From a virus (taxonomy: Duplodnaviria; Heunggongvirae; Uroviricota; Caudoviricetes), in IMG/VR virus record IMGVR_UViG_2875703104_000002: DNA of 37,887 bases, one strand, 5' to 3'. This document shows, piece by piece, positions 1,857 to 37,887 of this stretch. A program made the translations under genes and the position numbers. How positions within the stretch are numbered: the stretch's first letter is position 1; the number at the start of each line of letters is the position of its first letter. The notes below the pieces were generated by a model. It was not told the origin of the DNA. It made no database searches and saw only the letters and a list, made by a program, of their open reading frames with translations.

Positions 1857-1935
1857 TGAAGCGGCGCACGAAAAACGCGAAAGCGTTTCACGATAAATGC
1901 GAAAACTTTAGCTTTCGCGCTTCAAATGAAACAGC
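1857..1935 (-). repeat. Mu right end (attR) with transposase-binding repeats R1-R3
   Basis: TGAAGCGGCGCACGAAAAACGCGAAAGCGTTTCACGATAAATGCGAAAAC is recognised as the Mu R-end. CGAAA-containing repeats occur twice in one orientation, and an inverted copy (GCTTTCGCG) follows. The flanking pentamer GCCGG (1852-1856) fits the Mu target consensus N-Y-(G/C)-R-N. Confidence 0.85.
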
Positions 1936-1951
1936 AGTATTAATTACTGCT
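1933..1951. terminator. Hairpin between mom stop and the Mu right end
   Basis: AGCAGTA-TTAAT-TACTGCT forms a 7-bp stem. On the plus strand it is followed by TTTTATT; on the minus strand it is followed by GTTTCATTT. It could terminate transcription in both directions. Confidence 0.45.
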
Positions 1952-1953
1952 TT

Positions 1954-2697
1954 TTATTCATTACATGGGGATCGCTTAGGGTATGGCTGAACCTTGAATA
2001 GTTTGGTATTTAGCCGCTTCCTTGCTCGCTTGTTCAGGAATCTGATGTAGCGATACTGATTAAATTTGTGCACCACGGCACGCTCTTTATTAGCCCGTAA
2101 ATACACGCCTCGTTGTCCACCTCGCTTAATCGCGTTCATCGTTATCTCGTGATACCACTCACCATCCAGCTCGTAGAATGTACTTTCATGACTGCCAATA
2201 AAATCAAAATTCGACGCCTGATACACAACGCCTGCGCGTCCGCAGCGTTCGTCTGCAAAGGACTGAACCCACTCCACTGACGGATACAGTAACCTGATGG
2301 TTTTCAGTGCATAACTGATGACCCGTGATTCAGAGTTGCGGGGCATGTCATCGTGTAGCCACATGCGGTTCAACTCCATATAGCCCCGGTTATCCGTTTC
2401 AAGCACGACACGACGACCTGAGTTGGGGTTAAGGGCATATCCCCACTGGAGAACGCCAACCAGATCGCGTCCGCTGAATACTCCCAGGTGGAGGTAAGAG
2501 TTATTCACAAAACGGCGGGAATAGTGCTTTGTCTGAATAATTGTGCGGGCCAGCCAACAGGATATGGTTTCAACGCGCAGCTCCTTTGAACCATAGCCAA
2601 CAATCTGGCCTTCATACTCAATAACGCACGGTTTCGTCAGAATGCGTGATTTCTTCTCTTTTCCCACAATGTTTCTCCGTGGGATGCTCGCAGGCAT
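1954..2697 (-). CDS. mom: Mom DNA-modification enzyme (adenine carbamoylmethylation, anti-restriction)
   Basis: The translation is recognised as Mu Mom. Its 5' end overlaps the com 3' end as in Mu. The true start is uncertain because the Mu protein is annotated shorter in my memory. Confidence 0.9.
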
Positions 2698-2806
2698 TCA
2701 GCATTATGATGTGACGTTTGCAACGCGGACACCTGATTTCAATGTGAACAAAGGAATCCGCCTTAAATAACAGTTTGTTGCAGTTTTTACAGCGAATTGA
2801 TTTCAT
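2618..2806 (-). CDS. com: Com zinc-finger translational activator of mom
   Basis: 62 aa beginning [16 protein letters not shown], with CxxC...CxxC. GGAGGTGAG precedes the ATG. Recognised as Mu Com. Confidence 0.92.
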
Positions 2807-2920
2807 CTCACCTCCTTTGCATCAATTCGCCACTATCTTAAAAAACATCATGAGTTGAGTGTGGTTATTGGGGCATAATCGATCTGTATTACCGATCGAT
2901 TCAATTGATTCGATCGTCGT
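2807..2920 (-). promoter_or_regulatory. Pmom late promoter with C-activator dyad and Dam/OxyR control region
   Basis: On the minus strand, GTTTTTTAAGAT gives a -10 TAAGAT (plus-strand 2835-2840). The dyad TTAT-N6-ATAA lies at 2865-2878. Three GATC sites lie at 2881, 2894 and 2912. This matches the recalled organisation of the Mu mom control region. Confidence 0.8.
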
Positions 2921-2933
2921 TTTCTATATGTGT

Positions 2934-3062
2934 TCGCTACGGCTGGGTATCATTTCCGACGAGAATAAACAAAAATTAACCGAGTGGATGCTCTATGCGC
3001 AGAAGGTCGAATATACAGACACCTCCAGCCTGCCAGTAACGTTTCCCGAACAACCAGAATGA
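2934..3062 (+). pseudogene. 3' remnant (about 42 codons) of a second tail-fibre assembly gene (U'-like)
   Basis: SLRLGIISDENKQKLTEWMLYAQKVEYTDTSSLPVTFPEQPE* aligns with the C-terminus of the intact U on the opposite strand ([39 protein letters not shown]). It is convergent with U, as U' is in the Mu G segment. The upstream part of the 67-aa track ORF is merely the mom regulatory DNA. Confidence 0.8.
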
Positions 3063-3090
3063 GAGAAGGCCCGGTATCGGGGCTTAATTT

Positions 3091-3618
3091 TTACTCTGGT
3101 TTTTGTGGCCATTCTGGCTTTGCTGTATCCACACGGCTGACCAGAACGCTGTAGCGTTCCCAGGCTTCCAGTCGTGTGCGCTCCTCATCCGTCGCCATAT
3201 TCAGCCTGACAGCGCGTTCCAGCTGCTGGATGACTGATTCAGCTTCGGAAAGCAATGCGGCCTTTTGTAATTCGGCCTGCTGTTGCTGCTCGTCTGCCGT
3301 ATAAATCCGTTTAACCACAGCTCCGTCCTTAAACAGCCACTTTCCTGAATCGTCGGCGCGACGATTGGCGGTGATATCGGGAACTTCGACAACGCTGTAG
3401 CCTGTAGGGTCCAGTGTTGAAGCGTCTCTGGTTACGGCCACAATAATATTGTTCTCGTCGTAAAGAATTTTTATTGTGTCCGGCTGAAAGTTCTTCACTT
3501 CCTCATACCAGTTTTTTCCGTCTTCTGACCACAGCCAGGCAACATTAAAATTTTTTGTTAGCTGATATTGCTCAACGGTTTTTGGATTGCCGGCGACAAT
3601 GTTTTTTAAATGCTGCAT
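3091..3618 (-). CDS. U: Tail-fibre assembly chaperone (Mu U / Tfa family)
   Basis: 175 aa with the conserved N-terminus MQHLKNI.AGNPKT..QYQLTK and a C-terminal ...WPQKPE. It lies immediately downstream of the fibre gene. Confidence 0.9.
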
Positions 3619-3621
3619 AAA

Positions 3622-6266
3622 TTACACCTGTGACACGTTGTACCACGTTCCGTTAATTAACTTTTGTATTGGTCTGAATACTGCCGGATCGTCGCCATCA
3701 ACTTCGCCGACAATGCCAAGCCCGGTAATTACATGGCCTGATTTCTCATACATCACGCCTTTTTGCATGGTCTGAACAACACGTGTGCCAAGTCGGACAT
3801 CCCTCACGTATCGGCCATCAAAATTGCCGTAATCCGAGGGGTTAACGCGCCCCGTAATATTTACGGTTTTATTACTCTGAATGCTGCCGGAAACAAAGCG
3901 CATAACATGGACGTTATTAGCATAAACATCCAGATTACCATCACCATTTTGTTTAAAGCCCGTGTCATTATCACCCAAAACAATCGAATTACCGCCAAGA
4001 GCACTGGATGTTCCTATACCCAGAGCACCATTCAATTGACCACCAGATAACGGCAGTGCACCGACATCTCCCGCTGTAGGTTTTCGCGTTGTGGTATAAA
4101 ACTCAGACCAGTCAGCCTCGAATCCGTAACCGTCACGAGCAGAACGATAAAAAATACCACCGTTCTTATAATTAACGCGAAACTGGGCGGCGGGACAACT
4201 TCCTTCACCGATATTAAAATGAAGAATTAACGTTGATGCCCCACCAATATTTGCGTTATAGGCTCCGCTACTCCAGTTCCATCCAACGGCTTTATCATTC
4301 GCAACGGTGTCTCCTGTTTTTCCTGAAGCAAATGCACCAATATTTTTCGGCGTCAGGTTAATATCTGATGTTCCATCAAACGAAACGTTATTAATTTTAT
4401 TCCTGAAGCAAATGCACCAATATTTTTCGGCGTCAGGTTAATATCTGATGTTCCATCAAACGAAACGTTATTAATTTTACGGGCTGTTTTCAGCTTTGTT
4501 GCTGTCGCCGCATTGCCGGACAGTTCACCAGAAAGGCCAGCACTGAATGCCTGTTTCGCGCCCCATGTCTGGGCTTCGTCAATGATTGGTACTCGTCTTG
4601 TTGTGATCGTGCGGCTTCCCGGATTTCCTGAAATGCGCACCATAAAAAAGCGGTAGTTGGCTTTACTTACAGTGCTGCGCCATACATGCATTGAGCGCCC
4701 CGTACCGGAATCATCACTCGGACCAACTGCGATGTTTATCAGGTTGCCATCAATGACGCCCCAGTCCATACCGTCGGGAATATTGGTCATATTATCCAGC
4801 CGAACGGTTATCAGACTGCCCGGCACAAAATCGTAGGTCTGCCAGTCCAGACTGGATAGTTTTGCCACTGCGCCACCGATGCCCAGATTCAGGGGAAGTG
4901 AATAAGATGTGTAAACTTCCCGCCATTCGCTCCATGAGCTGCCGGTAAAAACGCGCTCAAACGTGCGACCTTTAAGGGTTGTACCTGTTCCGGCAGTTGT
5001 ATAACGCTGCCATACGTTAACACCATCAAAGCGCCTCAACACTTCCAGAATACCGAGGACTGTCACGCCGTTTCCGTCCAGTATTGGACCGTTGGTTGCT
5101 TTACCTGTAACGCTGTAAATACCTGGTGAAGTCACATCATTCAAATCCCCGTCGTAATAACGACTCTCTGACTGATGACCGACTCTTAACCACGGTTCCC
5201 ACTGTGGGTTCTCTGCATTCCATGTAGCAGAAAGGCAGCGAACATATACGTTCCCACGGCGGGTCGTATAGCGTTGCGTGCGTGAGTACCCACCACCCTC
5301 AAGAACTTCAAGGAGTCCCTGACCATAACTTCCTTCTTCCGGATAGTTGCGGTCAAATGAAGCGATAGAGCCACTACTGTTTCGCCATAAACCAAGATGC
5401 TCTGCGCCTCCTAGCGTGTTCAGGTCAATAGCTGTGCTCAGGGGGCGTGTTGCAGACTGAATCTGACGCCAGTAGCTCCACGGACCGTCTGAGCCATTCC
5501 AGGTGCCAGAAAGATTACGCATATAAACATTGCCAGTTCTGGTGGTATAACGCTGCATTCCGGAAAAATTACCGCCATTGAAGACCTCAAGAACACCGAC
5601 TGCACCGTCTTCAGGGAAATTTTTCTCCAGTGTTGCGTTGGAGGATGTGGATTTATACCAGACACCCACATAAGCCTTAACTGGACCAAATGTATTGATA
5701 TCAGCATCAACCGGCATTTCGCCGTTGTTTTTCATAAACGTCAGGCTGGTAACGCCAACATTGTCCAGAAAAGCTGATTTATCCTGGATATCTGCACCAT
5801 TCTGATTTTTCGCCAGACGTGAATTTGCGTTGTCATTTGCTGCCTTGACCGCTTTTGGCGTTGCGGCGAGTGCTTCGGATGTGCTGTTGGTAGCACTACT
5901 TAGCTGAACCAGCCCCTTTTTGCTCACGCTGGCATCATAAATACCCAGATTTTCACGTGCTGTGCGCTGTGCTGATGCCCCGGCAGTTTTTATTTCGCTG
6001 AGGTTATTTTTTATCAGCAGCGCGTTCTTGTTCATGATGGCTTTAATGGACAGTGCAAGCTGGTTTAATTTTGTTTTATCCGGTTGAATACCGGCTTCTT
6101 CCAGCGTGTTTAATAACTCCGCCTGCACAATATTAAACCAGTCCATGCCGGGCCATGTGATAACATTATTCCCGTCACCTTCTGAAAACCAGCGAACGAT
6201 AGCACTACGCTGGGCGGATACGGGCGGCATGACGGTTACGCCGCTGTCGTTATCAATATAAAACAT
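3622..6266 (-). pseudogene. S: Tail fibre S, mosaic and frameshifted by an 80-bp tandem duplication
   Basis: The first ~165 aa match the recalled Mu S constant part (MFYIDNDSGVTVMPPVSAQRSAIVRWF...). The ORF stops at 4353 after 15 out-of-frame codons. The region 4352-3622 is open in another frame and encodes a typical fibre distal end (...GNFDGRYVRDVRLGTRVVQ...INGTWYNVSQV). Removing one 80-bp copy gives a single 854-codon ORF. Confidence 0.9.
4320..4479. repeat. Perfect 80-bp head-to-tail tandem duplication inside the fibre gene
   Basis: 4320-4399 and 4400-4479 are identical at 80/80 positions by direct comparison of the printed sequence. Confidence 0.97.
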
Positions 6267-6808: not shown

Positions 6809-7881
6809 TCAATTGTCCCCGGTGTTAACAGTTCCGTATTCTCCGAACGCTGGATCTCTGTCGGGAAACGCACTTCAAAATCATCCAGACCGGTAACACC
6901 TGCCACCGCACGGATAATACGGGAGGGGGCAAGTGCGCCGCCCGGCGTCACCTCATTAAAAAACATGGTATTAATGGCGTGGGTAATAGCCTGTTTCAGT
7001 TCGGCTGTCTTCGGTGATATATAAATCCGTGGATTTACCGGCTTTGCCTTTGGCGCAAATACCGTGACATTTACACCGTCAGGCTGCCCGACAATCAGGC
7101 CGGTTATCGGGTCAGTATGACCGGCGATATAATCCGCCACACGTTCCACGTCTGCCGGTTGTGGAAAAATATTGCTCCGGTTATCCATAACAAACGTCAC
7201 CCCGACTGTGCCACCGCCTTTCCATGTCGGAAAACACCAGGCACGGGTAACGCCGCTGACTTCACGCGCCCAGCGGACGTAATCAAACTGATTACCGCCG
7301 AACGGAGGATACTGGACACGATATTCCAGCCGTGACAGCAGCTCCGCTGCACTCTCAATATCAGCCCCACCGGAAAACCCTTTTACAGTGATGGCATCGG
7401 AAACAACACAGGCAACCGGGGTGATCAACGTTAAAAGGGTATTCTCACCGGTATTTCCTGCCTCACCGGCAGCCAGTGCGGTAACGGTAATTTCCGTCGT
7501 TCCTGCACGGTCAATCACAATGGCATCAGCCAGGCTGTAAACCACACCATCAGCACGCTGCCAGCGTGTACCGGCAGGAATGGTGGTCGCTGCCGATGTG
7601 GTGACAGTCAGCGGGCCGCTGGCGGCTGTCGCCTGTTTGCGGCGCACGCCCCAGAACCGGCAGTGCTCCAGCAACTCATCTTCATCTGCTGTCGACGGGA
7701 TAATCTGCCGTCCAACCCATGAAATATGCTCGTGACAACCGGCAGCAAGGCCCGCCTGAGCATAAGCAATGGCACTCAGCGTTTTTTCACGGGCCTGAGG
7801 CCAGCTACCCGGCAGGCGCTGTTCAATATTCTGTTCTGTACGGGCAATCAGCGATGATAATGTCGGTGGTGAATAAGCCAT
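6799..7881 (-). CDS. W: Baseplate J-like wedge protein gp47
   Basis: 360 aa. Position and sequence match Mu W. Confidence 0.85.
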   Translation of the reverse strand: MAYSPPTLSSLIARTEQNIEQRLPGSWPQAREKTLSAIAYAQAGLAAGCHEHISWVGRQIIPSTADEDELLEHCRFWGVRRKQATAASGPLTVTTSAATTIPAGTRWQRADGVVYSLADAIVIDRAGTTEITVTALAAGEAGNTGENTLLTLITPVACVVSDAITVKGFSGGADIESAAELLSRLEYRVQYPPFGGNQFDYVRWAREVSGVTRAWCFPTWKGGGTVGVTFVMDNRSNIFPQPADVERVADYIAGHTDPITGLIVGQPDGVNVTVFAPKAKPVNPRIYISPKTAELKQAITHAINTMFFNEVTPGGALAPSRIIRAVAGVTGLDDFEVRFPTEIQRSENTELLTPGTIEWL

Positions 7882-8319
7882 TTAAACCCCGTTAAATGCT
7901 GCTTTAAACTCATAAGGAATAACGGAACCATCCGGTAATGTCAGTGCAATGTAGAGGTATAACCAGCCCTGATGTAACTGTTCCGCTCTGACGTTAATCG
8001 CACTTACCCGGCCCGCTGTTTTCAGCCATTCCAGCGCCTCTTCGGCATACCCTCTGGCGCGTTCCAGCGTATCCGGTGTGGCTTTTTCACGTGATAACAG
8101 CCACAACCGCGAACCGATGGGGCGGTCGCGGTAACTGTCCCCCCACCATCCACGGCGATCATCTGAACCATCCGGCAGCGTGTCAGAATCCAGCGCGCGC
8201 CGGTCGGTAAACAGGGAGATTGTCACATCGGTTGTCAGGCTGTCGTCGGTCAGCATATCAATGCCATCCTGTGCAATATCGCCGCGTCCGTTCGTCCAGA
8301 TAATGGCTAAATCGGTCAT
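7882..8319 (-). CDS. V: Baseplate protein gp46 (GP46 family)
   Basis: 145 aa. Position matches Mu V. Confidence 0.85.
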   Translation of the reverse strand: MTDLAIIWTNGRGDIAQDGIDMLTDDSLTTDVTISLFTDRRALDSDTLPDGSDDRRGWWGDSYRDRPIGSRLWLLSREKATPDTLERARGYAEEALEWLKTAGRVSAINVRAEQLHQGWLYLYIALTLPDGSVIPYEFKAAFNGV

Positions 8320-11520: not shown

Positions 11521-14007
11521 TTACCAACCTGTAATGTAGTTATCGCCCGCGTAAATATTCAGCCCCATACCATCCTCGGTGACGCGGGAACTGGTCAGAC
11601 GTAACCCCTCGCCGAGTTCGACGCGCAACGAGGCTTCCGCATTGACTTTTTGTTCCTGCGGTTCCTTATCCGTGGCCGTCCATTTCTGATACAGGTCGGT
11701 TACAAAACCGCCCAGATACTCCCCGGCGACACTGCCCAGCGTGGCACCGGCAACCGTACCCAGCGGTCCGGCAAGGCTGCCAACGGCACCGCCGAGCCAT
11801 GCACCGGCTGTACTGCCAATTGCGCCTGCTTTTTCATGGGTTGACGCCTGTTCATCCATCAGGACGGGGGCAAGCTGGAGTGCCCCCATTACCGGGCCAC
11901 CCAGACGTGACAGGGCACGACCGGCACCTTTCCCCATCCAGCCCAGCGCCCCGGCACCTTTTGTCACAACCCGACCGATCGCACTGCCTGCAAGTTTGTT
12001 TCCGATACCGGAAAACCACCCGCCAACGGCACGCCCGGCATCAGCCAGCTTTCCGACCGTTCCCGTAACCAGTTGCCCGGCAGCACTGCCTGCAAGCCTG
12101 CTCAGAAGACCGGATTTACCGGGCAAAGGCTGTGGCGCAGGGCGTGGTATTACCGGCACGCCCGGAGATGGCACGGGCTGCCTGTTTCCGGCACCGGAAA
12201 GCAGTCTGCTGACAGTACGCCCGGCATCCGCCAGCGTTCCTGCCGCTCCCGTAACCTGCTGCGCGGCAGCGCTGCCTGCCAGCTTGCCCGGAAGACCGGA
12301 TTTAGCGGGCAAAGGGCGTGGCGCGGGGCGTGGTATTACCGGCACGCCCGGAGATGGCGCGGGCTGCCTGTTTCCGGCACCGGAAAGCAGTCTGCTGACA
12401 GTACGCCCGGCATGCGCCAGCGTTCCTGCCGCTCCCGTCACCTGCTGCATGGCAGCGCTGCCTGCAAGCCTGCCCGGAAGACCGGATTTACCGGGTAAAG
12501 GTCGTGGCGCGGGGCGTGCTGCTGCCGGAACGCTGGGTGGGGGTAATGGTGCAGGCCGTGCTGTTACCGGTACGCCGGGTGGGGGTAATGCCAGTACAGG
12601 GCGTGGTGCAGGTAATGCCAGCGGCTGTGGCCCGGACAGCAATAACGGCTGGCGGGGTAACAGCGTGGGCATTCTTCCGCCGCTCCGTACGCGACGACCG
12701 CCGCCACTCCCGTAGCCACCAAATCCACGGGGCCAGTTGATGACAAACACACGCTGAATGCCGATACCCTGCAACAGCGTCTCAGACGTCATGGCATCCG
12801 GGACCGGCAGGCCTGCCTGCCCACGTTTGCGGTTTCGCATCCAGCGCCACATACGACGCCCGGTTTTAAACGGATAACTGGCAACCTGCCATGAGGGTTT
12901 TGCCACGGCCCAGCCTGCTCTCAGGGCTTTATTGGCAAGCCAGACAGACACCAGAACAGCAGCCAGTTTTTTCAGGCTGACAATATTCTGGTCAACCCAT
13001 GCCAGCGCATCTTTACCCGGTTTCAGCCAGCGCCATAATTCCTGCGCCGCGATTTTTACCGTTCTGAACGTGGTCAGAAATTTCTGACCAATGTTTTCTG
13101 CCAGTGCGTCAAGTTCCCCGGATTTATCCGCCATGTCGTGCCAGTTAAGCACCCGGCGCATCTCGTTCTTGATTTCTTCAAAGGGGCCGCTGTTTGCCAC
13201 CTTTATGCGAAATTCAAGCAGGTTGGCTTCCATCTGTGCGAACATCCCGTCCCAGGAGTTCATCGCACTGGCTTGTGCACCTTTTGACTGTTCTGACAGC
13301 GTTCTGAATACCGTCAGAATGGATTTCATGCCCAGCTTGCCCTTTGTACCCAGATCACGGATTTTTTTAACGTCCGTTCCCGTTGCATCCGCCAGCGCCT
13401 GATAAACATTGATACCGTAACCGGTCAGCAGGTTGGCATCCGCCGCCGTGATTTGCTGGCGGGCAAACATCTGTTTCAGTTGCAGTGAGGCACCCTGTGC
13501 AGTGGGTAAATCCCAGCCGTGCATGGCCCCCTGATCCTGCAACATGGTGATGAACTGTTTCGTCTGTTCATCCGTCATGCCGAAGCCTTTCGACGAACGG
13601 ATCTCATCCAGAACACCACTCAGCCCCCACGTGGTGTCCTTCGCGTTCTGCTTCGCCCAGGCCATCATAGCCTGCGCTCTGACCTTATCGCCGTGATACA
13701 GCGAGTTCATAGCGATGATCTGCTGCTCACGCTGGGCGGCTGCACCAATAAACAGTTTATTGGCGGTGTAACCCACGCCAGCGATACCCAGCGCCCCGGC
13801 TGACAGCATTCGGAATGTACGGGTTGACAGAGAACCCATTCTGTCAATTGCACCAGAAACGCGCACAACCTCCATACGCAGGGCTCGCAGGGAACTCTGC
13901 CCACTACGGGACAGGGCGTTTATCTGGCTCGAATACTGGCGGGAACGCCGGGAAAGATTGCCATTAAGATCAATAATGACAGACGCCTTTAAGCGTTTCC
14001 CGGTCAT
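11521..14007 (-). CDS. Tail tape-measure protein (gp42) with internal tandem repeats
   Basis: 828 aa located between the tail chaperone and N. It has a helical N-terminal half, a central hydrophobic segment, and a Gly/Ala/Pro-rich repetitive C-terminal half. Confidence 0.9.
11930..12481. repeat. In-frame 186-bp (62-codon) tandem repeat in the tape-measure gene
   Basis: Copies at 12110-12295 and 12296-12481 differ at about 11 positions by eye. A diverged third copy extends to about 11930. The protein unit is [58 protein letters not shown]. Confidence 0.9.
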
Positions 14008-23585: not shown

Positions 23586-25306
23586 TACCAGCCCCCTCGT
23601 TCAAACTGGTGATAATCATCAAAATCATCGTTATCAACATCATCACCACGGTGGCGTGGTGGCAGCGCCTGTATGCTGTCCTCGTCGATAACAAAACCAT
23701 TCATATAAGACGCCCTGACAGCCATACAGAGCGCCACGGCAAAGTCGCCATGTCGTCGGCCTTTACCGCCTTCATCTTTTGTGCGCCCCTTATCAATCTG
23801 CGGAATACCTTTGTCCACCTTGATGTGGAGCAGGTCATCAAGTGTGGTCTGGTGCCGGGCAATCGTGATGTTCTGCGCTTCAAACTCGCCTTTCAGTTTC
23901 GGCATCCACTCCTGATACCAGGATGCGGTCAGATTCACACAGTCGATCATCTCCGGGCCATAAATCAGACGGGCGGCTTCTGCCAGATAACCGCCGTTAC
24001 CGGTGGCATCAAATGCAGCGCCGGTAAAACGGGGCAAACGGGACAGAATGAATAAAAGGATTTGTCGCTGCTGGTCATAGGTCACATTACGCAGCTCCAC
24101 GCGGAAACATTCGCGTTTGCGTAAGTCAGGAGTGATGGCAAGCGGAACAAACACCGTAAGGTCACCACGGCGTGCAAAGTCTTCGCCCAGTACGTGTTTA
24201 TTGAGCGGCGACAGCGCATCGAGCAACGGGAGCAGCTCCTGTTCACACCAGTCCTGAACGATGCCGTGGCGCATTTGTGGTGTCAGCGATTCAAAATCGT
24301 CCGGGGCTTCAAAACGCAGAATCGGGATATCCCGCGCTGGCGTCATGGCGGCTTCAATCAGCACGCGTGACAGATAAGCGCCCCCGGATTTTTTAGGAAT
24401 GCAGCCGTATTCCTCGTCGGCACTCTCTTTATTCGGCGCATTCCGGTACAGGCCATCACGCCAGGCTTTTTCCGCTTCCGGCGACCACGGCTGATTCGTG
24501 ACGTAACAGATACGTCGGTACAACCCGTCAGCGATGGCATCATCCAGCGTGATGCGGTGAACGCTGTAATCCTTGCGCCCCTCGCGCGCATCCTGAATGT
24601 ACTGGTTAAACAGGTTATCGACGCCGTTATGTGTCGATATGATCCGCACGCGGGCACCCCACATGGTGAGAGCAAAAGCCGCTTTCAGCAGTTCGTCCAG
24701 GGCTTCATGAAATGCCGCCTCATCAATCACCACGTCCCCCTGCAAACCACGCAGGTTAGACGGACGGCTTGACAGCGCCTGCACCTTAAATCCGCTGTTA
24801 GGGAAACGGATCATATAAGTGAGGATTTCTTCTTTTTTGTCGCTGTCCCAGAAGGTCTGCTCCCATACGTCAGCCTTTGCCAGTTGGTTAAAGGCGCGGG
24901 CAAACAGGGCACAGGCGGCAATGTATTCCAGCGCCATTTCCTGACGGGAACCCACATAAAAAACGTTGCGACCGCCACGGCGACGCGGCTTTGCTGCCGT
25001 CATGACATTGCGGCCCGCTTCGGCCCATGTCAGACCGGTACGACGGGATTTTTCAGCAATACAAATCTGGCTTTCATCCTCAAACCAGCGGCGCTGATAG
25101 CCCAGAAAAACCGGTTCATTAGATGGCTGGGCGTTAGTGATGTCTGTAACGATCTCGACACCAAGTTTGGTTGCTTCTTCCTGAAGATCAATCTGACGGG
25201 GTTCACTTGACGGAATCAGTTTTTTGCCCCGGCTATTTTTTTCATACCCCATTATTTTTTCAGCCATAATACTTCGGTTTTCTTTAAATACCTGAGGGAA
25301 CGTCAT
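23585..25306 (-). CDS. Terminase large subunit gp28
   Basis: 573-aa ORF. The Walker-like/nuclease organisation and the position upstream of the portal fit TerL. The start is ambiguous (ATG at 25306 or at 25267, MAEKIMGYEK...), and neither has a strong SD. Confidence 0.88.
   Translation of the reverse strand: MTFPQVFKENRSIMAEKIMGYEKNSRGKKLIPSSEPRQIDLQEEATKLGVEIVTDITNAQPSNEPVFLGYQRRWFEDESQICIAEKSRRTGLTWAEAGRNVMTAAKPRRRGGRNVFYVGSRQEMALEYIAACALFARAFNQLAKADVWEQTFWDSDKKEEILTYMIRFPNSGFKVQALSSRPSNLRGLQGDVVIDEAAFHEALDELLKAAFALTMWGARVRIISTHNGVDNLFNQYIQDAREGRKDYSVHRITLDDAIADGLYRRICYVTNQPWSPEAEKAWRDGLYRNAPNKESADEEYGCIPKKSGGAYLSRVLIEAAMTPARDIPILRFEAPDDFESLTPQMRHGIVQDWCEQELLPLLDALSPLNKHVLGEDFARRGDLTVFVPLAITPDLRKRECFRVELRNVTYDQQRQILLFILSRLPRFTGAAFDATGNGGYLAEAARLIYGPEMIDCVNLTASWYQEWMPKLKGEFEAQNITIARHQTTLDDLLHIKVDKGIPQIDKGRTKDEGGKGRRHGDFAVALCMAVRASYMNGFVIDEDSIQALPPRHRGDDVDNDDFDDYHQFERGGW
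25241..25299 (+). promoter_or_regulatory. Candidate sigma70 promoter and SD for the opposite-strand orphan ORF
   Basis: TTCATA (25241-25246), an 18-nt spacer, then CATAAT (25265-25270). GAGGGA (25294-25299) lies 5 nt before the ATG at 25305. These signals sit inside the 5' end of the terminase ORF. Confidence 0.4.
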
Positions 25307-25793
25307 GTCACCAAAAGCAATAAAACTACTTGAAATATTTTGTGAAACAGAATTAAAGCAATCTATGGATACTGTTCAATTTGTCTCAATAAACGGATGG
25401 GAAACACTTCAGCGCCTTTGGCCCCTGAATGAACGATTCACACCACGCATAGAGCAAATCAGAACGATTAGCTACAGAAAGCAATTTGAAAAAGCCGCAG
25501 ATAACGCCATTGAGGATTTTCTGATGAAGGATGATGACTGGTCAGAAATTCCATTAGTTGTCTGGCGTGTTCTTCTGGAACGCCATAATCAAGCAACGAT
25601 TCTCTGCGTAACTAATGCACTCGCCAATAACACCGAACTTATGCACATCCCTGTCGGACTTTCTCAGTCGGCACAAACAAAATTTGCAGTAGCTTATTTG
25701 TATTACGCAATGAAGCTCCCATATAAAGTGCTCGGTGAATCACAGCTTGACATTGAATCACCGTTTGAGTATCTGAACACCCGGCTACAGTAA
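25305..25793 (+). CDS. Orphan 162-aa hypothetical protein on the opposite strand (moron between the terminase genes)
   Basis: A 489-nt ORF fills an AT-rich insert. Its first 60 nt are 27% GC, against 57% for 25861-25920. It has an SD and a downstream hairpin with a T-run. I see no TM segment and recognise no motif. Confidence 0.65.
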   Translation: MSPKAIKLLEIFCETELKQSMDTVQFVSINGWETLQRLWPLNERFTPRIEQIRTISYRKQFEKAADNAIEDFLMKDDDWSEIPLVVWRVLLERHNQATILCVTNALANNTELMHIPVGLSQSAQTKFAVAYLYYAMKLPYKVLGESQLDIESPFEYLNTRLQ

Positions 25794-33205: not shown

Positions 33206-33225
33206 TGTCAGCGTTCCTTTGCGAA

Positions 33226-33495
33226 TTAATGTTTAACCGCATTCACCGGATGTGGTACTAAATCACATTCAGCCTCCATACCCACTTTCTTCATAGTGGT
33301 CAGCATCTCATCTTTGGCCTTTTTAATAATTTCAGGAGCCATAGTCAGGACGATATTTGCCAGTAAATCATGAGGCCCGGTATTTTCCGTTGGCGAGATA
33401 TCTGCAAGACATGCTTTTGCATCCAGAACTTCTCTGCGCCCATTGCAACCTTCACTACTTTCCAGCCATGTAAACTCAAAGATAACTTTTGCCAT
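33226..33495 (-). CDS. Early-region hypothetical protein (89 aa)
   Basis: ORF with AAGGAGACGC before the ATG. Confidence 0.65.
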   Translation of the reverse strand: MAKVIFEFTWLESSEGCNGRREVLDAKACLADISPTENTGPHDLLANIVLTMAPEIIKKAKDEMLTTMKKVGMEAECDLVPHPVNAVKH

Positions 33496-33506: not shown

Positions 33507-33761
33507 TTATTGATTCTGAATAACTGCGCTGGCTTTTACCTTCGCGCCTTTTACCTGCTTAAAGAAAACCGCGCTGCACCACGGACAACATGCAAAGGAG
33601 TCCCATACTTCATTTTCTGGTGAGCATTGCGTCATAATTTGCTCTTTGCATTTGGGGCAATTAAATGCAGTCAGAGCCACATTGTTATTCTGTACCCGTT
33701 TAACCCATTCAATATATTTTTCAGCTTTAGTACACATCGTTATCTCCAGATAATCTGGCAA
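33507..33761 (-). CDS. Early-region zinc-ribbon-like protein (84 aa)
   Basis: Contains CPKC...(19 residues)...CCPWC. It overlaps the kil 3' end. Confidence 0.6.
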
Positions 33762-33967
33762 CCATTAAGACGGGCCGTCCATACAGAACGGGCCACCCCG
33801 GACTTATGCTCCATAATTCTGACCGCGTTTTTTACCAGTTCCACCGGTGGGTAAGTGATTTCAAGAATCGGACGCGCCACGCCGAGATATGATTCATTTA
33901 CATGACTCCCGCGCGCCTGTAACCAGTTCTGCGCATCCGTTGCCATTTTTATGTTTCGGGCTATCAT
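33740..33967 (-). CDS. kil: Kil (host cell-division/killing protein), first ORF after B
   Basis: 75 aa. The position immediately downstream of B matches Mu kil. Confidence 0.75.
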
Positions 33968-33982
33968 AATTTCTTCTCCTTC

Positions 33983-34921
33983 TTAATTACGCAGCAGCGT
34001 TGAAATATCAACGTCCAGGTCTAATTCACGGAAAGCCTGACGCAGATAATCTTCGTTAACACGCTCACCTTTACCGTGAGCCGTCATGGCGGCAAGGCGA
34101 AGTGAATGATTCAGAATGCGAAGCGCACCTGGTTTCTGCGCAATCTGCTGTAATAACTCCAGTTCATTTTCGCCGTTAATCTGCCAGGCATCCGCAATAG
34201 CTTTTACATCGGCTTTTTTGGTTTTATTAATTGCAGTGCGCTTTGCAATACGGGAAAACAGACGGGCAAATTCAACCGTTCTGTTACCCCCCGTCATATT
34301 TGAATAAACCCGGTGATTTCCCATCAGCACAAGGCCAGTGCGGGTTGATTCCTGTAACAGGCGGAGTTCTTCCAGAACTTCGGCACCAAGATGATCAGCT
34401 TCGTCGATGATAACCAGCCCCTGTGTACCTTCAAGGCGACGTCGCAGGGCGCGGGAGAGCGGCCCTTTACGGCGTGGTGCGTCATTCATTCCCAGCTCAA
34501 ACGCCAGTTCAGTAAGACATTCCAGAACGCTGGCACAGGATGGCGTAATGGTGATCATCCAGACATTGTTATTGGTGCGGCGATATTCACGGGCCGCTTC
34601 GGTTTTGCCCACACCAGGATTGCCACATACAACAGCAATACTTTCAGTCAGGCTGGCAAAACGCATACTTGTCCAGATTTGTTTTACCGTCTGCGTTTCC
34701 ACAAAGCGGGGCGGTTCAGGTAGTTCTGCAACTGCATGATATTTTTCCAGCCAGCGTTGCAGAATTTGTGAAACACGCTCGTTATCCCCGTTGTACTTAT
34801 CATTGATAAAACTACTGATAGTTCCGGTAGAAAGTCCGCTCTCAAGAGCAATTTGTTTAAAGGTGGTTTCTTCATTTTCTACAAGCGTGCGCAGTCCTGC
34901 GCGAATATCGGAAATATTCAT
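33983..34921 (-). CDS. B: MuB ATP-dependent target DNA activator
   Basis: 312 aa with Walker A GNPGVGKT and Walker B LVIIDEADHL. Recognised as MuB. Confidence 0.95.
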   Translation of the reverse strand: MNISDIRAGLRTLVENEETTFKQIALESGLSTGTISSFINDKYNGDNERVSQILQRWLEKYHAVAELPEPPRFVETQTVKQIWTSMRFASLTESIAVVCGNPGVGKTEAAREYRRTNNNVWMITITPSCASVLECLTELAFELGMNDAPRRKGPLSRALRRRLEGTQGLVIIDEADHLGAEVLEELRLLQESTRTGLVLMGNHRVYSNMTGGNRTVEFARLFSRIAKRTAINKTKKADVKAIADAWQINGENELELLQQIAQKPGALRILNHSLRLAAMTAHGKGERVNEDYLRQAFRELDLDVDISTLLRN

Positions 34922-34959
34922 CTGAATAACCTCGTAATTAAATTTTGTTTAAACGTTAA

Positions 34960-36948
34960 TTAAATGGCTTTTTTACGTCTGTTCTGTTCCAGAATATCCA
35001 GCGAATGATTCAGATATTCATCACGCTCAGTTTCGTATTCATCATCACGCTCCTGATTCTTCACCCGTTCCATATTACCGGAAGGCCGGAAAATGCCGAC
35101 AATTCGTGATTCTGGTGCTTCAGGTTCGGCTATCTGCGGCAGCAGCTCTGCCACTTCCAGTGCATCCATTTGTTTCTGTGCCTTAATCGCTGCTTTCGTC
35201 GCAGATTTCAGTTGTTTCTGGCGGCGACGATATTCACGGCCTGCCGCAGCATCATTAAACGCAACAGGTGCCAGACATTCCGCTTCACAGATAAACCGAC
35301 CGTCCAGGGTGTAGCAATAAACCGTGCTGTGTAACTGCTGTGGATCAAATCTGACCACAACTTTTTTCACTCCGGCATTCATTAACGCCATGTTGTAATA
35401 AACGTTTTTCGCACCTTTAAGGGAGCCGCCAACTTTAAGCGCGAACTCGCCTTTACGTGAAACGTTCACCGCCTCGGCAGGCAGTAACAGCATCCGTTTT
35501 TGCTCTTCGGTAGGCTTACGCACAATCGTTCTGGCGTATTCACGCTCAAAAACGTCATCAAACGAAAGTTTGCCTCCGCACATTTCTGTTTCACGGCCTG
35601 TTCTGGCATTGAACATCGCCACACCTTCGGCAAGGGTTTTCAGAAACAGCTCTGCATCAACAGCGCGGTCGCCATAGTTATCAGGTTTTGCCTGCGGATT
35701 AGGCCCCGTATATGCGCCAGCCAGTGCCGGATGCTTATCAACGTATTCCTCAAGCCCACCAACACCGAAAGCACGTTCAACAGGTTTTGCCTGGCCCCAG
35801 CCTTTACCAGCAACAACGCTTGTCCAGTGCATTTTCGCCCCCATCAGTAAAAACAGTCCCTTTGGGTCGTCCTCTTTTACCTTAAAGCGGTAGCGATTGG
35901 GCGCGCCTCCCGTCAGCCATTTATTCGCAGCACCACGGGTGTTATCAATGGTGATGTGAAAATCCTCCGGGATACCGTAGCGAGTCACAACATCCATGAA
36001 CGAGAGGCGAATTGAATCAATGTTCTCGCTCACATCGCAGCGCCAGCCCAGAATTTTTCGGGTTTTCACATCCTGCCAGAACCATGTTTTCGGGCGGATC
36101 ACATCACCGTTAAACCAGCGTACAAAGACGTTATGCAGATAACCGTCGCCGTTGATCCACTGCATGGCGTCCAGGTGTTCCACAGTTCGCTGCTGTGCCG
36201 GTATCAGATGCATCAGTGCATGTTCACCTTCACGGCAGGCAACAACCATTGCCTCGTCCAGTTGCTGAATCCGGCGAAAGGCCGTGGCACGGGAGGGAAT
36301 ACTCCAGCCATGCTCGCGGGCTGCCAGTTCCAGACGCTCATAACATTTGCGGAAGGCGGGTTTTTCCGGTCGCAGATAATCTGCAATCAGAAACTGCCAG
36401 GCATCCTCGTCAAATTCACTTTTGTGAACATTGCGACGGGATGCTCCACGTCCATCAACAAGTGCAGCCGCCCAGTCAGGCTTCGCAAGCTTCTGTACCT
36501 GGTAATACTTGTCCCGCAAAGTGGATGCGCTGACCTGGTAATGCCCTGCAACGGTCGCAAAAGCCGTTTTCGTTGAAATCCCCTGGTTCAGCATTTCGTC
36601 TGCAGCCTGAACAGCAGGCAACCATTTTTCAGCAAGTCTGCGCTGGGAATCGCTGGCGTTATCCCATTTGCTCCACAGTGCCTCACGATCATAATCATGG
36701 GCTTCCAGCGTGGGGCGGGCGATTTCAAAATACCCCTGACTTGTTTCAATTCTCCCTTGTTGCAACAGAATTTCAGCACGTAATGCGACAGGGAATGATT
36801 TGATATTGAATTCAAATGATACACCTTTAGTCCCTGCAACCTGCCTGAACTCCCAGCCTTCTCTTTGTGCCTTACGTGTAATGTTAGTGGCTTGCTTTGG
36901 TAAACCTGCCAAACCGAGCAACTCTTTTGCTGTATACCATTCTTTCAT
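34960..36948 (-). CDS. A: DDE transposase MuA (D108-type N-terminal enhancer-binding domain)
   Basis: 662 aa. From about residue 65 onward it is recognised as near-identical to MuA. The first ~60 aa differ from Mu and resemble the N-terminus of the repressor in this window. Confidence 0.95.
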
Positions 36949-36955
36949 AGCGCAC

Positions 36956-37177
36956 CTAGTATCGAGACGGCCAAATATCTTGCGGTGTCATTCCCAGTGC
37001 ATCTGCAATGATTTTCTCCGCTTTCGGATATCTCTTATCCAAAGCATTTTTTAATGTTGAAGACGAAAGATGATTAGATCTTCCCAATTCAGCTAGTGAC
37101 ATATTGCGTTTTCGTAGCTCTGCAACGATGTCAGCTCTGTGCCAATCTTGGCGGTTAGTTCTTTTATTCATATGCAT
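36956..37177 (-). CDS. ner: Ner (Cro-like early repressor), D108 type
   Basis: 73 aa with the core ...[23 protein letters not shown]...IWPSRY. The length and the adjacent operator match recalled D108 Ner rather than Mu Ner. Confidence 0.9.
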
Positions 37178-37201
37178 TTCATGTAATCCTTTCAGATTCC
37201 C

Positions 37202-37243
37202 CCGTGAGCTACGCTATAAAGTAGCTCACGGCATATCGTGCAA
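37202..37243 (-). promoter_or_regulatory. Ner operator (perfect 11-bp inverted repeat, 8-bp spacer) overlapping the candidate early promoter Pe
   Basis: CCGTGAGCTAC (37202-37212), GCTATAAA, GTAGCTCACGG (37221-37231). On the minus strand, TTGCAC (37238-37243), a 17-nt spacer, then TTTATA (37215-37220). Confidence 0.75.
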
Positions 37244-37362
37244 TGTAGTGTGGAATCATTTTTAAATCAATAGTGATTTGAAAGGATTTATCATGATTTC
37301 ATATAACAGCATGATTTTTATATGAATTTATTTTGTCTCTATTGAAATCACTAGGATTTTAA
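37244..37362. promoter_or_regulatory. Repressor operator / transposition-enhancer region and the c promoter
   Basis: An AT-rich divergent control region carries six TGATT/AATCA motifs between 37254 and 37352. AGGA lies 7 nt before the c ATG. Individual operators and the IHF site are not resolved. Confidence 0.6.
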
Positions 37363-37887
37363 ATGATGTCTTTTGAAATCAAAGAATGGTTTAATGCGAA
37401 AGAGCTGGAAGGGATGCCTGGTGTACCAAAGTTGGCGACTAACATTACCAGGAAAGCTGTGGCGGAAGATTGGGTAAAACGTCAGCGTCACGGTGGGAAA
37501 GGTGTCGCTTATGAGTATCACATCAACAGTCTGCCAGAAGAAACACGCAGGGCCATTAAAGGAGCCTCACTTTCTGATAAACCAGTGCATACATCAATCG
37601 TCCATACAGTTGATGAGAGGCTAATTTATGCAATGAGTTTCTTAACACCAGATGAGCAGGCCGCAGCAGTGGAGATCATTCGTGTAGCAGGGATTAAAGG
37701 ACTTATGCCTACAATTGTCAGTAAAGATAAGGCATTAGAGGCATTAGGGATTACTGTGGAGCAACAGAAAACCCTGCAAACTCTTCAGGCATTACCACCG
37801 GAAAAAGTGAGAGAGATTTTGTCTCAGTATGAAGGCAAAGAACATAATTTCCCTGTAAGAGAAAACGATGTAAAGAAAGCTGTATAA
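37363..37887 (+). CDS. c: Lysogenic repressor c (D108 type)
   Basis: 174 aa, divergent from ner. Its N-terminal DNA-binding domain is paralogous to the A N-terminus. The C-terminal ...VKKAV resembles the recalled Mu/D108 repressor tail. Confidence 0.9.
   Translation: MMSFEIKEWFNAKELEGMPGVPKLATNITRKAVAEDWVKRQRHGGKGVAYEYHINSLPEETRRAIKGASLSDKPVHTSIVHTVDERLIYAMSFLTPDEQAAAVEIIRVAGIKGLMPTIVSKDKALEALGITVEQQKTLQTLQALPPEKVREILSQYEGKEHNFPVRENDVKKAV

Follow-up and report, generated by a model that had tools for sequence, protein, structure and literature searches.

Stumps of gin and U' beside the mom control region suggest loss of the inversion switch in a Mu-type prophage of Escherichia coli

INTRODUCTION

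In the bacteriophages Mu and D108, the tail-fibre region has the canonical order Sc-[gixL Sv U / U' Sv' gixR]-gin-com-mom. The parts of this system are well known: the G/gin switch, the com-mom operon with its regulation, the U and U' chaperones, and the mosaicism that arises as Mu, P1 and P2 exchange fibre modules. Plaque-forming deletion mutants of Mu that lacked gin and part of G, and were consequently frozen in G(+), were reportedly described by Chow, Kahmann and Kamp in the 1970s.

Here, we analyzed a stretch of viral DNA of 37,887 nt (IMG/VR record IMGVR_UViG_2875703104_000002; the whole stretch is hereafter called the window), in which only 284 bp (2807–3090) separate the stop codon of U (3091–3093) from the start of com (2806). 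An earlier note on this DNA, made from the sequence alone, had given the coordinates of this spacer correctly. The locus raises the question of what became of the invertase and of the G(–) half of the segment, and whether the short spacer goes back to a deletion, an import, an assembly error or an ancestral lack.

RESULTS

Identity of the prophage and its insertion site

We aligned the window to the genome of Mu and listed the features of the region in Table 1. Positions 1–1856 were E. coli chromosome (the yidF-emrD-ysdE side), 100% identical to many complete genomes, and Mu homology began exactly at position 1857, which corresponds to Mu 36717, the right end of Mu. Colinear blocks of 97–98% identity covered Mu 1519–36717 except for a few indels, and mom, com, the mom promoter (Pmom), Sc and the remainder of the late region shared 97–100% nucleotide identity with Mu, D108 and SfMu. 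The window has a Mu-type genome end, colinear late and early genes including the transposition genes A and B, and a predicted com-mom operon with promoter motifs (–10, dyad and three GATC sites) as in Mu. These features indicate that the window contains a Mu-type transposable prophage (Muvirus) in E. coli.

Several differences from Mu were observed elsewhere in the window. The tape-measure gene contains a 186-bp tandem repeat (12031–12518; 2.6 copies, 91% match), about one unit more than in Mu. A 162-aa ORF that is absent from Mu (25305–25793, + strand) lies on the opposite strand between the small and large terminase genes; it has no Pfam match and only a weak PADLOC match to Csx15 (E 0.008), and may be a moron gene. 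Mu 7673–8148 is missing at window 30594/30595, the early region contains a short non-Mu patch (33220–33476), and the last 1.1 kb (36760–37887, the immunity/ner side) is without Mu homology, the window stopping before the left end of the prophage. An Rfam scan of the whole window yielded no family reaching the gathering threshold.

Table 1. Features of the region between the prophage right end and the tail-fibre gene (window coordinates; a dot marks features without strand)
Feature	Position	Strand	Basis
attR / right end of Mu-like prophage	1857..1881	.	start of Mu alignment; host DNA to the left
mom (DNA modification)	1954..2697	-	ORF; Pfam Mom PF25680, E 3e-75; 91–100% identical to Mu
com (translational activator of mom)	2618..2806	-	ORF; Pfam Zn_ribbon_Com; 99% identical to Mu
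mom promoter/control region	2815..2935	-	motif positions; 4 substitutions relative to Mu; reaches ~–107 if +1 is near 2828
gin 3' stump, RTHIENDDRIN + stop	2901..2936	-	tblastn with Mu Gin 183–194, 11/12 identical
Deletion junction, TGTGTTCG/CTACGG	2936..2937	.	Mu 35638 joined to Mu 33657; also in S6 and 1290
U' stump, last 42 codons of G(–) tail-fibre assembly gene, pseudogene	2937..3062	+	tblastn, Pfam, polymorphisms
Hairpin between convergent U and U' stops	3067..3085	.	terminator scan; homologous D108 site annotated as bidirectional terminator
U, tail-fibre assembly chaperone	3091..3618	-	ORF; Caudo_TAP; 3201–3618 100% identical to P88-like prophage BCE049
Tail-fibre gene S	3622..6266	-	Mu Sc-type 5' part (6266 to ~5900), rest P2-H-type; Pfam fibre repeats
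Perfect 80-bp tandem duplication	4320..4479	.	TRF: period 80, 2.0 copies, 100% match; frameshifts S
gixL-homologous position	5737..5770	-	11/34 to Mu repeat in register; P2-H-type sequence, not gix

Stumps of gin and U' and the deletion junction

The earlier note had described the last ~42 codons of a U'-type chaperone gene in the spacer (2934–3062), and this was borne out with a slightly shifted start: residues 137–178 of Mu U' aligned to 2937–3062 (tblastn, E 3e-22), and the 42-residue peptide matched positions 90–131 of the 131 positions of the Pfam profile Caudo_TAP (E 1e-11). The U protein matched positions 2–131 of the same profile (PF02413; E 8e-36) and is full-length, whereas the stump is only a fragment and does not count as a member gene. 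The equivalents of the stump in two complete E. coli genomes, S6 and 1290, are annotated in RefSeq as incomplete tail fiber assembly protein.

Most of U', together with Sv', gixR and gin, had been reported missing. This holds except for gin, whose last 11 codons and stop codon remain; the gap of 15–20 bp that had been placed between the GATC sites and the U' stump is in fact a stretch of 36 bp that constitutes this gin 3' end, overlooked at first reading. The gin stump is colinear with the 3' end of Mu gin (positions 1045–1080 of the Mu-region record L002), with the stop codon at Gin position 194, and the third GATC site lies inside it, as it lies inside gin in Mu.

The alignment with Mu located one breakpoint. 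Window 1857–2936 corresponded to Mu 36717–35638 (97.7% identity), window 2936–3620 corresponded to Mu 33657–32973, and the 1,980 bp of Mu in between (33658–35637) were absent; this interval comprises gin codons 1–182 with the enhancer, gixR, Sv' and U' codons 1–136. The deletion ends ~20 bp past the third GATC site, and the microhomology at the junction is at most 1 nt. Since the single breakpoint is flanked by sequence colinear with Mu on both sides, the difference amounts to one internal deletion of 1,980 bp, and the loss is best read as a single illegitimate event. A homology-driven deletion was considered and rejected: the gin 3' end and U' share no extended homology, their best local alignments lie elsewhere, and the breakpoints show 6–7-nt matches only. 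The earlier proposal of a deletion or replacement in an ancestor that carried the G segment, as opposed to an ancestral lack, is supported by these results, and more strongly than by the U' stump alone, since the gin stump abuts the U' stump and both flanks are colinear with Mu.

We also considered and rejected the possibility that the U' stump is a functional small ORF. Because the corresponding stumps of P88-like prophages contain an in-frame stop codon and those of Mu-like prophages gather non-synonymous changes, the stump was treated as a pseudogene.

Absence of the inversion system

In a tblastn search of the whole window with Gin, no homologue was detected besides the 11 C-terminal gin codons, as had been claimed for the invertase. 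The best gix-like site anywhere in the window matched the 34-bp repeat of Mu at 21 of 34 positions, which is the level expected by chance, and a scan of the window found no inverted-repeat pair flanking the distal fibre part (3091–5780); both results fit the loss that had been proposed. The Fis-dependent recombinational enhancer sis, which lies in the 5' part of gin, is absent, being inside the deleted Mu interval (Fis sites in gin placed according to PMC3378877). Instead of two alternative Sv/U sets in opposite orientation, the window contains one set and 42 codons of U'.

The peptide AFLDNVGVT had been named as marking the position of gixL and as matching gix poorly. The poor match was confirmed, and the place was 9 nt off, the peptide being encoded at 5774–5748. 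The sequence at the gixL position is identical to that of non-invertible P2-like H genes, and within S, similarity to Mu is regained only from 5788 (Mu 31936), a point 18 bp short of the gixL repeat. The gixL site thus appears to have been overwritten by P2-H-type sequence rather than deleted. The element lacks every defining feature of an inversion system (invertase, gix pair, enhancer and second gene set), yet it stays a Muvirus. The suggested loss of host-range switching by DNA inversion is supported by the lack of a Gin homologue, a gix site or a flanking repeat in the window.

The mom control region

The spacer had also been said to contain an intact mom control region, and all its motifs were found unchanged relative to Mu: the –10 hexamer TAAGAT at 2840–2835 (minus strand), the C-protein dyad TTATTGGGGCATAA (TTAT-N6-ATAA) at 2865–2878, and GATC sites at 2881, 2894 and 2912. 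Only four substitutions distinguish 2807–2936 from Mu, none of them in these motifs, and the annotated Mu late promoter (Mu 35693–35759) corresponds to window 2815–2881.

When the mom transcription start (+1) is placed near 2828 on the basis of the –10 hexamer, the deletion junction falls at ~–108. Five Fis sites have been mapped at Pmom, with centres at –123, –98, –49, –38 and +3 (Karambelkar et al., PMC3378877). The gin 3' stump overlaps the third GATC site and the Fis site at –98. The most distal Fis site (–123) would lie beyond the junction, within the U' stump, and would accordingly be lost, with the other four kept. Pmom itself is intact, as are its C site and its Dam/OxyR region. A C-dependent, Dam/OxyR-controlled mom promoter would hence have been kept essentially whole, and mom regulation would probably be normal.

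The hairpin that follows U now lies ~150 bp upstream of the mom control region. On the + strand, a 67-codon ORF with a GTG start (2859–3062) begins in the C-site/GATC region, crosses the gin stump in antisense and continues into the U' stump, stopping at the hairpin. Transcription from the divergent momP2 promoter would read this strand; the ORF is probably meaningless.

Tail-fibre genes and a private duplication

From ~5900 down to 3107, the fibre region was of the P2-H type, with 90–100% identity to the Peduovirus vB_EcoM-569R9. The boundary of this exchange lies within a conserved fibre motif (Pfam Phage_fiber_2, residues 113–154; ~5790–5910).

In the window, S is split into ORFs of 637 aa and 137 aa. 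The perfect 80-bp tandem duplication shifts the frame after residue ~623, and removal of one copy restores an ORF of 854 aa, the length of the S6 orthologue, which is intact (2,565 nt, 854 aa). The duplication was absent from the 5,426 complete E. coli genomes searched and is private to the window. Unless the duplication collapses, the prophage of the window is probably unable to produce a whole fibre, and it may be adsorption-defective; the duplication could be undone if one of its copies were lost, or might stem from faulty assembly. The phage had been described as locked on one enlarged fibre. This fits S6 and 1290, which have an intact fibre of 854 aa, but it does not fit the window copy, which is frameshifted by the duplication.

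The junction in other genomes

We surveyed 5,426 complete E. coli genomes and found that 46 of them had a close relative of the Mu com/Pmom region. This region was followed by a recombinase gene in 44 of the 46, and by the junction seen in the window in the remaining two, S6 and 1290 (99.2% identity). These two complete genomes, from Sweden and the USA, respectively, were sequenced independently. Each of the three prophages with the junction is inserted at a different chromosomal site: emrD/yidG (window), ydcV-patD (S6) and the inside of ydcO (1290). The S6 prophage is full-length, and its annotated genes, including that for the fibre, are intact.

In the prophages of S6 (540–36650 of the extracted locus, L122) and 1290, neither the right end nor the early region is that of Mu, so that the junction, or the gin-less late module, occurs on more than one Mu-like transposition backbone. 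The junction may have been spread by recombination between Mu-like phages rather than by descent of one phage. Near the left end of both prophages (L122 and L010), repeated AGTAGTATCAAAT motifs were observed. A 5-bp target duplication was not found for the S6 prophage, whose ends are not of the Mu type. An exact search with the junction sequence TTTTCTATATGYGTTCGCTACGGCTGGG gave no match in IMG/VR, the JGI metagenomes or the GTDB representative genomes, and the junction was spanned by none of 50,697 phage records, which suggests that the lineage is rare.

In U and the fibre tip (~3150–3750), the window was 100% identical to the P88-like prophage BCE049, but only 80–87% identical to S6 and 1290. 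Since these genomes have the junction in common with the window and differ from it in their U and fibre alleles, cassette exchange seems to have continued after the deletion. The junction would then be older than the present U and fibre alleles, with the right-hand crossover near 3060–3200. The different insertion sites and the different U and fibre alleles point to a small gin-less lineage and not to a private lesion.

Within the stump itself, the identity of the window was 97.6% to S6 and 1290, 96.9% to the full-length U' of D108, SfMu and P88, and 93.7% to BCE049. A two-base change (S to Y) is common to the window, S6 and 1290, and the in-frame TAG that marks the P88-like stumps is not present in the window. 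Import of the stump together with a P88-like cassette was rejected on account of these identities, the S to Y change, the missing TAG and the U alleles of S6 and 1290. These comparisons support the view that the stump belongs to the Mu-like lineage.

A parallel deletion in P88-like phages

In P88 and a prophage of IHE3034, the full arrangement invertase-Sv'-U'/U-H is present, which represents the parental state. In PhiR44_2, prophage BCE049 and seven IMG/VR contigs, by contrast, the last 18–19 codons of the invertase gene are joined to codon 132 of U', leaving U' 3' stumps of 47–48 codons, and the junction contains a microhomology of 3 nt (CTA). Loci of this P88-like (Xuanwuvirus) deletion include L003 4911–5130, L007 2411–2630 and L012 3221–5132. 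Like the window, these P88-like elements carry both an invertase 3' stump and a U' 3' stump; they differ from it in belonging to another family, in lacking an adjoining com/mom, in the sequence of the junction and in the TAG within the stump.

In homologous coordinates, the P88-like endpoints lie within ~15 nt (U') and ~2 codons (invertase) of the Mu-like ones, with the BCE049 stump starting 14–17 nt further upstream than that of the window. Each of the two U' breakpoints is at one copy of an 11-nt repeat, CACAGCTAYGG. A third type of junction was found in an IMG/VR contig (L093), in which the end of a P88-like gpU is joined to codon ~108 of U' and the whole invertase gene is removed; the agreement of the invertase-side endpoints is therefore not universal. 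Of the 109 IMG/VR loci that contain the 3' motif of U', 98 were full-length and 8 were stumps. The near-coincidence of the Mu-like and P88-like endpoints may reflect a hotspot, selection or chance.

DISCUSSION

The results are very probably explained by a Mu-type ancestor that carried a canonical G segment, lost its inversion switch by a deletion of ~2 kb and later took part in cassette exchange. The ancestor would have had the order Sc-[gixL Sv U / U' Sv' gixR]-gin-com-mom, and one illegitimate deletion, with G in the (+) orientation, would have removed U' codons 1–136, Sv', gixR and gin codons 1–182 with sis. Without an invertase, an enhancer and gix sites, a single type of fibre would be made, and a Gin, Pin or Cin protein acting in trans would have no substrate. 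Host-range variation would now proceed by homologous exchange of Sv-U cassettes with resident P2-like and P88-like prophages, bounded on one side by the fibre N-terminal motif (~5790–5910) and on the other by the U 3' end, the hairpin and the U' stump, and gixL would have been overwritten by that same exchange. The layout of the locus, the deletion endpoints, the lack of gin and gix, the junction common to other genomes and the mosaic identities come directly from the sequences; we infer the order of events, as well as the viability of the lineage, from comparison of the genomes. An alternative order, in which a single event replaced Sv-U and deleted gin, is possible.

The explanation that competes most directly is a one-step import, in which recombination took place between a Mu-like phage whose G segment was still intact and a P88- or P2-like prophage already without an invertase and with only a stump of U', so that the stump would be donor DNA. 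The left crossover would have been homologous, in the fibre motif, and the right one illegitimate, just inside the donor stump and 36 bp inside gin. In favour of this reading, from 2936 to ~3830 the window is overall 97–100% identical to the stump-bearing BCE049, the BCE049 stump begins only 14–17 nt upstream of that of the window, and gixL has been replaced by P2-H-type sequence. However, the stump is closer to S6 and 1290, and even to the full-length U' of D108, SfMu and P88, than to BCE049; it lacks the TAG of the P88-like stumps and carries the S to Y change seen in S6 and 1290. Moreover, these two genomes have the same junction with another U allele, which indicates that the junction predates the BCE049-like block (100% identity from ~3150–3200). 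We consider a one-step import unlikely.

An assembly or sequencing artefact, in which the junction or the missing 2 kb would come from a collapse of repeated tail-fibre sequences, deserves mention in view of the odd perfect 80-bp duplication in the window and of the trouble that invertible segments and convergent, partly homologous U and U' genes are known to give short-read assemblers. The identical junction in the two independently sequenced genomes from Sweden and the USA, and breakpoints that are not in repeats, with no extended homology between the gin 3' end and U', make this reading highly improbable. There is hardly more room for an ancestral absence of the invertible segment. A distant group of Mu-like prophages, the Sp18-like ones (com 79% identical), does have com at a distance of 119 bp from a DUF4376 gene and lacks both an invertase and any remnant of U', so a native arrangement of this kind exists; in the window, the fragments of gin and U' are kept in their Mu positions and orientations, and the two stumps facing each other already refute it. 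A deletion in a Mu-type ancestor, followed by cassette exchange, remains the reading that we prefer.

Comparison with known systems places the window close to Mu, D108 and SfMu, with which it has in common the gene order and the right end as well as the motifs of Pmom (–10, C dyad and three GATC sites); it differs from Mu in lacking Mu 33658–35637, in the overwritten gixL and in the predicted loss of the distal Fis site of Pmom. The Mu fibre has 504 aa, whereas that of the window lineage has 854 aa with a distal part of the P2-H type. The P2-type H-G module (Peduovirus, vB_EcoM-569R9) is 90–100% identical to the window in the distal fibre (~5900–3860), is natively non-invertible and contains no gix; P2-type phages nevertheless differ from the window in their baseplate and fibre N-terminus, and 569R9 has no U' stump downstream of G. 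In Sp18-like Mu-like prophages (E. coli RM11911), com-mom lies directly downstream of the fibre chaperone gene, with a short spacer (the 119 bp given above; locus L011 4999–5870) and no invertase, as in the window. In contrast, their chaperone is of the DUF4376 type and remnants of gin or U' are missing, so that the absence looks native and not like a recent deletion. The fibre region of RM11911 also contains pseudogene fragments. The laboratory mutants of Mu are said to resemble the window in lacking the invertase and the right part of G and in having one fibre state; those mutants were reportedly selected in the laboratory, whereas the window lineage is natural, occurs at three chromosomal sites, has kept mom control and has since undergone fibre-cassette exchange.

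The parallel deletion in P88-like phages, an independent event in a myophage lineage unrelated to the Mu-like one, raises the idea that loss of the invertase and the G(–) half is a recurrent, site-preferred event and not random decay. The host range would then be locked by a specific mechanism, be it cryptic sites for a recombinase, a hotspot prone to forming structure or strong selection for the exact product. We regard this idea as rather unlikely. If it were true, the U' stump and the hairpin would form a conserved homology arm by which fibre cassettes are swapped between phage families.

The novelty lies in a naturally occurring close relative of Mu whose deletion of gin and the G(–) half is precisely defined and present in several genomes. 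The gin-less Mu-type prophage is genuine, yet it is a rather ordinary variant of a system that is well understood. Its practical consequences are modest; how each of the parts works is known already, and the lineage is rare. The natural deletion endpoints and the marker junction can be used for genome screening, and annotators may take a 'partial tail fiber assembly protein' beside com as the mark of a lost invertible segment. Mu serves as the textbook example of a host-range switch that works by inversion, and our results suggest that its close natural relatives (97–98% identity) can discard the switch cleanly. Such switch-less relatives would keep mom control, persist at several chromosomal sites and rely on cassette exchange of the P2/P88 type for variation of the fibre.
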